Source of the DNA: an uncultured Chloroflexia bacterium
Lineage (GTDB): Bacteria > Chloroflexota > Dehalococcoidia > SM23-28-2 > RBG-16-64-32
Direction: 5' to 3'
Assembly (NCBI GenBank): GCA_963717065.1
Contig: CAVQVC010000001.1
Location: forward strand, 2,055,546-2,119,545
Length of the DNA: 64,000 nucleotides
Part shown: positions 33,155-39,551 of the stretch, piece after piece
Position numbering within the stretch: position 1 is the stretch's first letter
Layout of the letters: the number at the start of each line of letters is the position of its first letter
Made by a program: the position numbers and the translations under genes
The notes under the pieces: model-generated
Databases searched by the model: none
The model's input: only the letters and a program-made list of their open reading frames with translations
What the model was told of the DNA's origin: nothing

Positions 33155-34021
33155 CTACGGAGCAGGTGGCGCCGGCGGCTCCCAGACGTACTGCTGGCCG
33201 GTGGCGACGGCGTGCATCAGCGCTTCGAGGTCAACCTGCGTGGGCTGGGGCGGCGGCTCCAGCGAGGGGAGCTTGCGGATGGTGTCGAACGCCTGCCCAA
33301 TCTGCGGCCGTTTGATCACCGGCGTGTGGCAGGCGGCGATGACCTCGATGTCCAGCTTCTGGACGCGGTCGACATGGCGCTCAAACTTCTCGGCGTCGAG
33401 TAGCTTGAACCAGGGGCTATTCATGCAGTTGAAAAGCTCGAGTCCACCCTTCCATTCCTCCGCGGGCAGTGCGCTGATGTCGTCCAGCGGCCCGGGAAGC
33501 GGCGTCGCAAACGTGTCGACGGCCCAGTAGACGCCGGTGCGGTCGTCGTATAGTCCGCGCGTCACGGGCGAGTCGAAGAGCGGGGGCGTGATCGCCGTCA
33601 GGGTGCGATCGCCGGCCTTCCATGAGTCGCCGTCGTTAACCCAGCGCATGCGGTCCATCGGGAAGTTGAACTCGCAGCCGTGGCGCTCCGTGAGGAACCA
33701 GGTCACAACGAGCGTGGCGTTCGGGCAGGCCTCCATGACCTGCGGCAGGTTGCCGGCGTGGTCAACGTCGTCGTGCGTGAGGAATATCCAGCGGACGTCG
33801 CCGGGATCAACGATCGAGAATACGTCCTTCAGCCACTGTTCGCGGTTGGCGGGTGTCCCCGTGTCGACGATGATGGACTCTGGGCCCTTGATAACGAGCG
33901 AGTTGAGATAGACGAACAGGGGGCCGATGGCGGCTTCCTGCAACTGTTGAATGAGCCATGTGTCATCGGCGACCTTGATAGGCGGGTGATGGACGGCGGG
34001 TTTAACAGGGGCGAACGACAT
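33155..34021 (-). CDS. Metallo-beta-lactamase fold protein (FprA/ODP-like di-iron domain)
   Basis: VDTG, FLTHDDVDHAGNL, PPLFDSP, WAVDTF and ACH. Confidence 0.85.
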   Translation of the reverse strand: MSFAPVKPAVHHPPIKVADDTWLIQQLQEAAIGPLFVYLNSLVIKGPESIIVDTGTPANREQWLKDVFSIVDPGDVRWIFLTHDDVDHAGNLPQVMEACPNATLVVTWFLTERHGCEFNFPMDRMRWVNDGDSWKAGDRTLTAITPPLFDSPVTRGLYDDRTGVYWAVDTFATPLPGPLDDISALPAEEWKGGLELFNCMNSPWFKLLDAEKFERHVDRVQKLDIEVIAACHTPVIKRPQIGQAFDTIRKLPSLEPPPQPTQVDLEALMHAVATGQQYVWEPPAPPAP

Positions 34022-34060: not shown

Positions 34061-34783
34061 TCAGAGGGAGGCGTTGAACCGGGGCGCAGTTGGCTGCGCA
34101 CTCCGGCCCGGCCTGGCCACGGCGAGCAGGTTCGGGCGTACGATGATCATCGGCGGTACCGGCGGGAGGTGCGTCAGCCGATCAGCCCGCACGACCTCGA
34201 AGCCGGCTTCCCGTACAAAGCGCTCAGTGTCGCGGTTGGGGTGGCATCCCGCCCCGAACCAGTTCCAAACCGGATTCGCGATGTCCTGCGCAAACGCTCC
34301 CGCACGATTGGCGTAGCGCACGTGCTCGTAGAGGCGGAACTCCCCGCCCGGCCGGAGCACACGTTTGACCTCCGCCAGCGCCCTGCGCGGATCGCGCACG
34401 CTGCACAGGACCAGCGTATCCACTACGAAGTCGAAGCTGGCGTCCTCGAACGGCAGATCCTCCGCCGACGCCTGCCGCAACTCGATCGCTGCCGCCGCTT
34501 CCGCGGCCCGCGGGCGGGCGCGCTCCAGCATGTACGGGTCGGGTTCAATGGCCACGACACGCGCGCCCTTAGGGTAGTGCCGGAAATTTGCCCCCGTTCC
34601 CGCTCCGATCTCCAGGACATCACCCGAGACATCCCCCAGCATCTCCGCCCGCACGGCGCCGAAGAACTTCTTCTCCTGCGACGCCATCATCCGGTCGTAG
34701 ATCGCCGCGAACCACTTGTGTCCCTTCATCGCCTTCTCCTTCCGCTCGTGGAACCGGTCCGCGGCATCGCCGCGTCGTGTCAT
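34061..34783 (-). CDS. Class I SAM-dependent methyltransferase (METTL7-like)
   Basis: VLEIGAGTGAN, LPFEDASFD, TLVLCSV, YEHV and GCHPNRDT. Confidence 0.9.
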   Translation of the reverse strand: MTRRGDAADRFHERKEKAMKGHKWFAAIYDRMMASQEKKFFGAVRAEMLGDVSGDVLEIGAGTGANFRHYPKGARVVAIEPDPYMLERARPRAAEAAAAIELRQASAEDLPFEDASFDFVVDTLVLCSVRDPRRALAEVKRVLRPGGEFRLYEHVRYANRAGAFAQDIANPVWNWFGAGCHPNRDTERFVREAGFEVVRADRLTHLPPVPPMIIVRPNLLAVARPGRSAQPTAPRFNASL

Positions 34784-35217
34784 TCCTCTGCCAGCGTCTT
34801 CCGAATCTGCTCGGCGTGCTCGCGATCGTGGCTCGCCACATTCTCCAGGATACTGAGCACGCTGTATTCCTCGTGCCCTATCTTTTGCAGCCGGTAGAAG
34901 TCCTTCTCCTCGACAGTGGAGACCGCGTCCAGCAGTCCGGCGCGAGTCGCGTCCAAGGATGAGACGACCACGTCCGCTGTGTTCAGATCACCGTTTTGGA
35001 CGGCAACAGCCGGGTGGCCGTTGAACACGGAGATGAGCTGGGTGTAGATCCGCTCCGAGTCACGAACATGCTCTAGGATTCGCGACACGGGCCAGCTCCC
35101 GCGCCGCGCTCGCCCCAGGTCCTTCGGCGATAGGTTCTTGACCACTGCCTCGAATTCGGACCGCGCCTCGCCCAGCTCTTGCATCAAATCGGCCTTGTCG
35201 GACTCGAATTGGCTCAT
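34780..35217 (-). CDS. DinB family protein
   Basis: WPVSRILEHV and HDREHAEQI His motifs. Confidence 0.8.
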   Translation of the reverse strand: MSQFESDKADLMQELGEARSEFEAVVKNLSPKDLGRARRGSWPVSRILEHVRDSERIYTQLISVFNGHPAVAVQNGDLNTADVVVSSLDATRAGLLDAVSTVEEKDFYRLQKIGHEEYSVLSILENVASHDREHAEQIRKTLAEE

Positions 35218-35223
35218 CGTGAC

Positions 35224-36009
35224 CTACCGTCCCTTCGTCGCCGCGATGGTCAAGCCACGCGTCTCAAACGCCGCCGCGGATGACTCGTGCTTCGATCCCG
35301 AGAACACGTCTATCTGCTCGCCCCAGCGCACGCCGGAGAACCCGGAGTGCTCCAGCGCCCATTCCCACTCTGCTTCCAGCAGAGCACCGGCTATTCAGTC
35401 ACGCCAGAGGTCGATGTCGGCTTTCGCATCGTCCGGCACCACCTTGTGCACCACGATGTCGCCGGCCTGAAGCCGTCCTCCGGGCTTCAGGACGCGGTTG
35501 ACCTCCTGCAGCACCGCCATCTTGTCCGGACAGAGGTTGATCACCCCGTTGCTGATCACGACGTCGATCGAGCTGTCAGCCACTGGCAGGGCCTCCGCGT
35601 AAGCCTCGCGGAACTCGACGTTCGTAATTCCCGCTTCGCGGGCGCCTGCTTCAGCCTTTTCCAGCATCGCCGGCGTCATGTCAACGCTGATCACCCGTCC
35701 CGATGCACCGACCTGGCGCGCCGCAATCAAGCTATCGAGCCCCGCGCCACAACCGACGTCCAGCACCGTCTCGCCAGGCGTCAGATCACCCATAGAGAAC
35801 GGATTGCCGGTGCCTGCAAACGACTCGACGGTCCCTGCGGGCAGCGAGTCGATGACTGATTCCGGATAGCGGAGCATCATTGCCAAGGGCTTACCAGTGT
35901 GAAAGTGCGCCCCCTTCTCGGGCTCATTAGCGACTTCCGTGTACTTCTCGCTGATCTGACCACGCAGAGCGTCCGTGTCGACGTCCACGCGCTTCACCTC
36001 GATCGTCAT
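35224..36009 (-). CDS. Arsenite methyltransferase (ArsM)-like protein with predicted selenocysteine at in-frame UGA 35395-35397
   Basis: SFAGTGNP, LDVGCGAGLD, ISNGVINLCPDK and DLWRD-[TGA]-IAGAL...; the frame stays open for 56 sense codons to TAG at 35224-35226; hairpin follows the UGA. Confidence 0.85.
35367..35385 (-). promoter_or_regulatory. Candidate bacterial SECIS hairpin
   Basis: mRNA UGA-AUAGCCGGU-GCUCUGCU-GGA-AGCAGAGU: stem starts about 10 nt after the UGA, with G in a small apical loop. Confidence 0.65.
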
Positions 36010-36671
36010 TTAACACCTCCCAATACGGGCCTACCTTCGCTCTGCCACTCCGGCCAACCGCCGTCCAGCCGCACAACGTCGAATCCATTTGCGAGGAGAA
36101 GAGCCGCGGCTTCGTCCGCCAGAAGGCAGTACAGGCCGCGGCAATAGGCTATGATTCGCCGGTCACGTGGGAGTTGATCGAGAGAATCCGGAAGGTCCTC
36201 GAGCGGAATATTGATGGCACCACGTAAGTGTCCGGCCTCGAACTCCGGTCGTGGCCTCACATCCAGCAGCACGGCGTTCTGCCGCGACAGGGACGCGGCT
36301 TCGTCACGAGATACCACGTTGCCCTCGTCTCTCGTCGAATGGAATTCTTGCGCGAGCTGCTGCATTTCTGCGAGGCGCGACTCCGCGACGCCTCGCAGCG
36401 CTACCGAGAGGTTCATCACAGACGGATCGGCAAGACGGTAAATGATCATGTTGCCCTTCCTCTCCGATTCGACGAGACGCGCCGCACGCAATATCTGCAG
36501 GTGTTGCGAAGAGTTAGCGACGGACATTCCCGTATCCTGGGCGAGAGCATCAACGTGGCGTGGGCTCTGGGAGAGGATGTCGAGTAGCTCGAGGCGCTTC
36601 GCGCTGGCGAGCGCCTGCGCCACGCGAGCGAATTGGGGGTACATTTCGTCCTTGAATCTGCGCTGGCTCAT
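36006..36671 (-). CDS. ArsR-family regulator with C-terminal rhodanese domain
   Basis: ALASAKRLELL, SQHLQILR, LLDVRP..EF..GHL.GA and YCRGLYC. Confidence 0.92.
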   Translation of the reverse strand: MSQRRFKDEMYPQFARVAQALASAKRLELLDILSQSPRHVDALAQDTGMSVANSSQHLQILRAARLVESERKGNMIIYRLADPSVMNLSVALRGVAESRLAEMQQLAQEFHSTRDEGNVVSRDEAASLSRQNAVLLDVRPRPEFEAGHLRGAINIPLEDLPDSLDQLPRDRRIIAYCRGLYCLLADEAAALLLANGFDVVRLDGGWPEWQSEGRPVLGGVK

Positions 36672-36677
36672 TGACGT

Positions 36678-36720
36678 AGTATGGCGACAAGAACCGGGTC
36701 TCGTCAACTATTCGCTTGAA
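36678..36720 (-). promoter_or_regulatory. Leaderless promoter of the ArsR operon with an overlapping inverted repeat
   Basis: Minus strand TTGACG (36707-36702), 18 nt, CATACT (36683-36678), 6 nt, ATG; TCAA-N8-TTGA at 36704-36719 overlaps the -35. Confidence 0.6.

Positions 36721-37532: not shown

Positions 37533-37536
<4 letters not shown>
36892..37536 (+). CDS. TetR/AcrR family transcriptional regulator
   Basis: TRDQILDAAERLFAQRGFAGVSMRDI...SLYHHFRNKKALY. Confidence 0.93.

Positions 37537-39551
<2,015 letters not shown>

Follow-up and report, generated by a model that had tools for sequence, protein, structure and literature searches.

The question raised by this locus is whether a TGA codon that public gene calls take as the end of a methyltransferase gene is a stop at all, or whether it is read as selenocysteine (Sec, U). 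The locus lies in a 64,000-nucleotide stretch of a contig from an uncultured Chloroflexia bacterium (CAVQVC010000001.1, positions 2,055,546 to 2,119,545); this whole stretch is called the window here, and plain positions are counted within it. The called open reading frame (35395..36009, minus strand) encodes 204 amino acids, has the C-terminus DIDLWRD, and stops at the TGA at 35395–35397. Past this codon, the frame stays open for 56 codons, IAGALLEAEWEWALEHSGFSGV...ATKGR, up to the TAG at 35224–35226, and a spacer of 6 nt (gtcacg) separates the TAG from the ATG of the downstream gene (35217). An earlier note on this DNA had described exactly this arrangement, and all parts of it can be seen in the sequence. 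The ATG of the methyltransferase gene at 36009 has GGAGG ahead of it and overlaps, as ATGA, the TGA with which the upstream gene ends. As the best explanation of the locus as a whole, we regard it as very likely that 35224..36009 (minus strand) is one selenoprotein gene, in which 261 codons followed by a TAG specify an S-adenosylmethionine (SAM)-dependent methyltransferase of the ArsM superfamily. The UGA at codon 205 (35395..35397, minus strand; residues ...DIDLWRD-U-IAGALLEAEWEWALEHSGFSGVR) would be translated as Sec205 of a U-I-A-G (UxxG) motif, which aligns with Cys224 of the arsenite methyltransferase CmArsM. There is no second in-frame TGA before the TAG in the 261-codon gene, and a second C-terminal Sec was rejected on this ground.

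The Sec reading of the UGA is strongly supported by the comparison of related sequences. When 40 related genomes were searched in six frames, 10 order-level orthologs with 64–83% identity were found, each having one in-frame TGA. The TGA column is identical in all of them (...DIDLW(R/S/G)(D/G)-U-IAGALL...), the similarity extends to residue 259–260, and the 56 codons that follow this TGA are conserved in frame in the nine orthologs that reach that far, the tenth being cut by a contig end. The downstream conservation that the earlier note had looked to is thus seen up to the C-terminus, and the pairing of UGA with Cys that it had anticipated was found as well: the column holds TGA in 10 of 10 orthologs and Cys in 14 of 14 aligned full-length database homologs (61–66% identity). 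Cys also occupies the column in seven Cys forms found in genomes. At the class level, a search of 401 genomes (E ≤ 1e-70) returned 52 matches in 49 genomes, 45 of them with an in-frame TGA and seven without. The position of the TGA column was verified in the fetched loci, not merely in the match counts, and all 37 aligned Sec-form loci start at the same-column TGA.

If the TGA were instead a true stop, the gene would encode a truncated methyltransferase of 204 residues or be a decaying pseudogene, and the 56 codons would be untranslated remnants. The public calls do end at this codon. In a collection of 5.8 billion proteins, the nearest entries are many 204-aa calls with 77–86% identity, which represent the same gene cut at the UGA, and only the next tier consists of full-length proteins of ~261 aa (62–68% identity). 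The frameshifted selA gene of the assembly, described below, would also fit a stop. Furthermore, under selenium shortage Sec insertion probably has to compete with termination at UGA. Against this stand the intact frame in nine of nine orthologs and the homology of the part after the TGA to the C-terminal region of ArsM proteins of solved structure. This part is uninterrupted in the Cys-form homologs, and a remnant would not have retained an open frame together with 60–91% identity across families. We therefore regard a true stop as highly improbable.

The chance that an error in sequencing or assembly turned a TGC or TGT into this TGA is close to negligible. It is true that the assembly is noisy: it consists of 3 contigs with a completeness of 64% and is rich in indels. 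The essential rpoB gene (G000:C1:1868260-1872121) is split into at least 10 pieces across three frames, selA carries two +1 insertions, and the P450 gene of the window (37533-38772) has a frame shift at a GGGG run near 37913, so that frameshifts and split genes within the window deserve distrust. Nevertheless, the observed errors are indels and not substitutions, the same-column TGA occurs in ten other assemblies, and an in-frame TGA is present in 45 of the 52 class-level matches. As for the base call itself, which the earlier note had wanted compared with reads, a short-read contig from another, public run (X1 record 1) covers 35192–35424 with 233 nt and leaves the TGA unchanged, the sole mismatch being at 35236. 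The public DNA runs contain 0.06–0.17 of the sampled words; the one X1 contig spans the TGA, while other parts are uncovered.

Downstream of the UGA, the putative upper stem-loop of a selenocysteine insertion sequence (SECIS), GCUCUGCU-GGA-AGCAGAGU, occupies 35367..35385 (minus strand). It has 8 bp and a GGA loop and begins after 9 intervening nucleotides 3' of the UGA, which agrees with the hairpin placed about 10 nt past the UGA by the earlier note. A weaker and variable lower stem extends from ~35355 to 35391. In bacteria, a SECIS typically lies at a set distance 3' of the UGA and has a G in its apical loop. Like the SECIS of E. coli fdhF, the hairpin described here is a stem-loop within the coding sequence that lies ~10 nt past the UGA and has G residues in a small apical loop; unlike it, the sequence is peculiar to this gene family and has no match to a curated model, and SelB binding is putative here.

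The case for the hairpin was built on codon usage and on the comparison of Sec and Cys forms. The codon alignment of the 10 orthologs contains 114 degenerate columns with an invariant amino acid, and the codon itself is invariant in 12 of them. Eight of these 12 columns are the TGA and the hairpin codons 207–211, 213, and 214, whereas 4 of 105 columns are frozen elsewhere. As all of these columns come from the same gene and the same taxa, shared ancestry does not explain the difference. In the 37 Sec forms from the class and the phylum, the stem positions are paired in 97.0% of 296 cells, while partners slid by 1–3 columns pair in 28–63%. In the seven Cys forms, the pairing drops to 53.6% of 56 cells, which is within or just above the range of the slid controls (25–52%), and the Cys forms encode ALT(Q/P/K)(D/E)EW or similar where the Sec forms have ALLEAEW. 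In one Sec form, L074, the hairpin is a different one of 7 bp, ACUCCUC-GUU-GAGGAGU, and is shifted 3' by one nt. These comparisons of sequences indicate that the hairpin is selected at the RNA level, and we infer that it acts as a SECIS, its recognition by SelB being putative.

A conserved open frame would be explained by any kind of readthrough and is not specific to Sec. Consequently, the UGA at codon 205 might also be read as Trp, Cys, or Gly through near-cognate decoding or an altered code. This is extremely improbable, since the homologs have Cys at the position, which makes a classical Sec/Cys pair, the genome encodes a dedicated tRNA-Sec along with selB and selD, a single in-frame TGA is present in every ortholog, and a hairpin under purifying selection occurs in the TGA forms only. 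In addition, the overlapping upstream gene terminates with TGA, which indicates that TGA remains a stop codon in the operon; a changed genetic code was rejected for the same reason.

The genome contains tRNA-Sec with the anticodon TCA (72.2 bits), selB (331 bits, with a 624-aa open frame), and selD (368 bits). Of the Sec machinery that the earlier note had proposed to check, these three genes are intact, and the following observations have to be weighed against the selenoprotein reading. The selA gene (G000:C1:429775-431108) is present but spread over three frames, with two +1 insertions relative to two relatives; if these insertions were real, the strain could not make Sec. No RNA run containing the window was found among the public runs searched. 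The fold energy of the 61-nt hairpin region is ordinary (z = -1.45; 18 of 200 shuffles were equal or better), and two-sided compensatory changes in register were found in none of the eight upper-stem pairs among the 37 Sec forms. Finally, an Rfam scan of 35150–35550 at E values up to 10 returned no SECIS family, its only three matches being snoRNA-like and attributable to chance. We know of no general bacterial SECIS model in Rfam, and this null result may be uninformative.

The selA breaks are probably assembly errors, because the same assembly also splits the essential rpoB, although rpoC is intact in it. Among the five relatives that carry an ortholog, selA is intact in four and cut by a contig end in the fifth, and tRNA-Sec is present in all five. 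As the folding energy is unexceptional, the significance of the hairpin rests on comparative data. Covariation is nil, and the argument for an RNA structure is accordingly made by the freezing of synonymous sites and the absence of the stem from the Cys forms; shuffle controls for covariation are uninformative, since the stem is almost invariant. A Sec-type formate dehydrogenase, sought as a second selenoprotein of the genome, gave weak matches without in-frame stops, the search being confined to this one family.

We then considered what kind of methyltransferase the gene encodes. Pfam recognizes Methyltransf_31 (E = 3.5e-34), and the SAM motif VLDVGCGAG of the class-I SAM methyltransferase fold is present. 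The best NCBIfam match is ArsM (NF008823) with 226.6 bits, which is under the curated cut-off of 263, and residues 7–229 align with ArsM structures in PDB at E values from 7e-30 (5evj) to 1e-24. In these alignments, U205 falls on the Cys of GEC(L)(A/G)GAL, so the UGA does occupy the catalytic Cys position, as the earlier note had proposed. The same alignment to solved ArsM confirmed its remark that GTGNP and SNGV replace GCGNP and SNCV: the position of Cys72 is T67 and that of Cys174 is G155. The region of Cys44 corresponds to an invariant HFHTG (HFHTGKP here). Hence, of the four ArsM cysteine positions, only that of Cys224 is kept, and it is kept as Sec. The motifs HFHTG, G(T/V)(G/N)NP, SNGV, and (U/C)IAGAL were found in 10 of 10 further phylum-level relatives inspected, a count that leaves out the fetched locus L078. 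Another cysteine, C160 (NLCPDK), occurs in most Sec forms; however, Thr takes its place in two of the Sec forms and in all Cys forms but L075, which retains Cys, and Met does so in some phylum-level Sec forms. It is therefore not a conserved partner of U205.

The same genome also encodes a canonical ArsM (L069 738..1631, equal to G000:C1:882537-883430). This paralog of 297 aa scores 336.1 bits against NF008823 and has an N-terminal CC, GCGNP, SNCV, GCIAGAL, and a Cys-rich tail ...GQACGPGECC. According to PMC6138428, arsenite methyltransferases share four conserved cysteines, all of which are needed for the conversion of As(III) to MAs(III); in CmArsM, these are Cys44, Cys72, Cys174, and Cys224, and the last two form the metalloid site.

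Could the enzyme still be a canonical As(III)-methylating ArsM that merely has Sec in place of Cys224? Its top NCBIfam and PDB matches are ArsM, an ArsR-family regulator adjoins the gene, and "Arsenite methyltransferase, UxxG" is a selenoprotein family listed in Table 1 of PMC13188914. On the other hand, HFHTG, Thr, and Gly stand at three of the four positions that PMC6138428 describes as required, the NF008823 score is below the cut-off, and the genome already has a four-Cys ArsM with 336 bits. Moreover, the ArsR partner has a rhodanese domain and, by reading of its sequence, no cysteine in the helix that bears the As-binding cysteines of As-sensing ArsR proteins. Taken together, these points make a canonical ArsM unlikely. 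The suggestion of a different chemistry or substrate made in the earlier note appears reasonable, as three of the four ArsM cysteines are missing and the score is under the cut-off.

Compared with CmArsM and human AS3MT (4fr0, 5evj), the protein shares the alignment over residues 7–229, the SAM motif, and (C/U)-x-x-G-A-L, but it has 261 aa instead of 377–387, and of their four cysteines it keeps the Cys224 position only, as Sec. Sec at this position of ArsM-type enzymes is already known. Table 1 of PMC13188914, a review from 2026, gives "Arsenite methyltransferase" (NF008823, UxxG, one Sec) as an experimentally verified prokaryotic selenoprotein, citing Fomenko et al. 2007 (Science 315:387). 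The protein described here resembles this type in its superfamily, in its SAM-binding fold, and in having Sec in UxxG at the C-terminal metalloid-binding Cys. It differs from it in its score (226.6 versus 263 bits) and in lacking the three other cysteines, the comparison being with the family profile and not with the cysteines of the verified representative.

The table of PMC13188914 includes, in addition, three families of fused Sec methyltransferases that have UxxG, for which it cites Haft & Tolstoy 2025. They are ArsM/AhpD (NF041537), ArsM/DUF2284 (NF041536), and methyltransferase/UXPK-star (NF047649). The UxxG motif is common to them and to the protein studied here, whose domain scores of 221–227 bits exceed the 168–194 bits of the canonical ArsM paralog against the same three profiles, which indicates that their methyltransferase domain is the closer relative. 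Nevertheless, these scores are far below the cut-offs of 460–575 and cover the methyltransferase part of the profiles only; the protein ends 56 residues past U205 and has no AhpD or DUF2284 domain, second Sec, or UXPK C-terminus. A search of 401 sampled Chloroflexota genomes with NF047649 gave no match at the cut-off.

As UxxG Sec ArsM-type methyltransferases are already in print and in NCBIfam, the gene does not represent a new selenoprotein class. The word "hidden" used in the earlier note holds insofar as gene callers truncate the gene, but not for the enzyme type, which is listed in the table of PMC13188914. In the main text of the BSepDB paper (PMC13326102), the word "methyltransferase" is absent, although its supplements may list the family. 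We found no description of a stand-alone subfamily without the three cysteines in the literature searched, which did not extend to two of the primary papers or to supplements, and such a description may be in print. Within the same limits, no description was found of the predominance of the Sec form in Chloroflexota or of a linkage to sulfur-relay genes.

The subfamily is widespread in Chloroflexota, mostly in the Sec form, and, as judged from the aligned sequences, is marked by the four motifs given above. In a maximum-likelihood tree built from the 37 Sec forms and the seven Cys forms together with the canonical paralog, the latter seven nest within the Sec forms at two well-supported spots (99/95 and 100/99); deep branches lack resolution in this tree, and the branch to the outgroup is long. 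This nesting in two places would fit a subfamily in which, as far as sampled, Sec preceded Cys. The loci L074:1674-1718 (+) and L075:1600-1644 (-) are a sister pair of a Sec form and a Cys form from one family. The Cys form has only a weakened remnant of the L074 hairpin, and the pair has the appearance of a recent exchange of one residue for the other. It should also be noted that one class-level match, G046:C1:1867919-1868371 (-), has two in-frame TGA codons in residues 110–260; the extra one may represent either another Sec codon or a mistake of the assembly.

In the window, the gene is part of a same-strand cluster with the order ArsR-rhodanese, Sec methyltransferase, DinB_2, second methyltransferase, and ODP protein, all on the minus strand. 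The upstream gene (36006..36707) encodes a fusion of an ArsR/SmtB-type helix-turn-helix domain with rhodanese (Pfam HTH_5 and Rhodanese; NF033788 72.5 bits versus a cut-off of 55). Downstream, the gene of the DinB_2 superfamily (34780..35217; Pfam DinB_2, E = 5.3e-13) starts 6 nt past the TAG, and its end is overlapped by the start of a second class-I SAM methyltransferase gene (34061..34783; Methyltransf_11). The last gene of the cluster (33155..34021) encodes an ODP-family protein with a metallo-beta-lactamase fold (Pfam ODP, E = 2.8e-12). The ArsR-rhodanese regulator also matches TsoR (NF045707) in part, with 49.6 bits versus a cut-off of 115, and its rhodanese domain, the loop of which reads CRGLYC, partially matches TsoB and rhodanese_LYCAU, two selenoprotein families.

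Neighbours of the methyltransferase gene were counted in 47 loci, our own included, with 1.5-kb flanks, several of which are cut by contig ends. An ArsR/rhodanese homolog is near the gene in 23 loci, a DsrE-family gene in 11 (DsrE/DsrF, e.g., L075:2276-2788 (-)), and a major facilitator superfamily (MFS) transporter in 10, while a DinB gene and a second methyltransferase (Methyltransf_11) were each found in five. The ODP-type gene was seen in our own locus only. A TusA domain is present in three loci of phylum-level relatives (L072, L078, and L080), and in L072:1261-1722 (-) it is fused in frame to the methyltransferase C-terminus. Rhodanese, DsrE, and TusA are sulfur-relay carriers, and at least one such gene accompanies the methyltransferase in 28 of the 47 loci. 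Upstream of one ortholog, the protein of L063:3-1058 (+) has two rhodanese stretches; Pfam matched Rhodanese only, and its N-terminal part resembles a metallo-beta-lactamase fold by eye. We take this protein to be similar to the persulfide dioxygenase-rhodanese fusions of sulfide-detoxification operons.

Judging from the sequences, the substrate of the enzyme probably differs from that of ArsM, since three of the four cysteines required by ArsM are missing. A substrate other than arsenite is also the likelier one because the subfamily is distinct from the canonical four-Cys ArsM in the same genome and is often linked to ArsR-rhodanese, DsrE, or TusA genes. In the proposed mechanism, the GCUCUGCU-GGA-AGCAGAGU stem-loop would direct the decoding of the UGA via SelB and tRNA-Sec, and Sec205 would take the place of the metalloid-binding Cys224 of CmArsM beside the SAM site. 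The selenolate would then hold a soft substrate atom via a single Se-X bond and offer this atom to the methyl group of SAM. Rather than free arsenite, the substrate may be a species of sulfane sulfur or of selenium, or a singly coordinated metalloid; this is the weakest step of the scheme. Two points count against it: no rhodanese, DsrE, or TusA neighbour was found within the 1.5-kb flanks of 19 of the 47 loci, and both substrate and chemistry are entirely inferred. Only tentatively, as a proposal that we hold to be rather unlikely, we suggest a non-arsenic enzyme in which the single selenol takes a sulfane-sulfur or selenium atom from a rhodanese/DsrE/TusA relay as an Se-S or Se-Se adduct, which is then methylated by SAM, under the control of the ArsR-rhodanese sensor.

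For the family, the finding means that the public annotation is wrong at scale, as the 204-aa entries named "methyltransferase domain-containing protein" lose the active-site residue together with the 56 C-terminal residues. The subfamily is common, being present in 49 of the 401 sampled genomes of the class. The main value of the finding lies in correcting this widespread truncation and in the hint that a large ArsM-like clade may act on something other than arsenic. The practice of counting each ArsM-like match as arsenic-methylation potential in environmental surveys is challenged as well, because these proteins do not have three of the four arsenite-methylation residues and often adjoin sulfur-relay genes. 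As Sec is the sole conserved residue of the cysteine type in the subfamily, the enzyme offers a clean natural case for studying the role of one selenol in SAM-dependent methyl transfer. If the proposed sulfur- or selenium-relay function were true, the products would be methanethiol, methaneselenol, or a methyl-persulfide, and Chloroflexota would have a selenoenzyme route to volatile methylated chalcogens that had not been described before.

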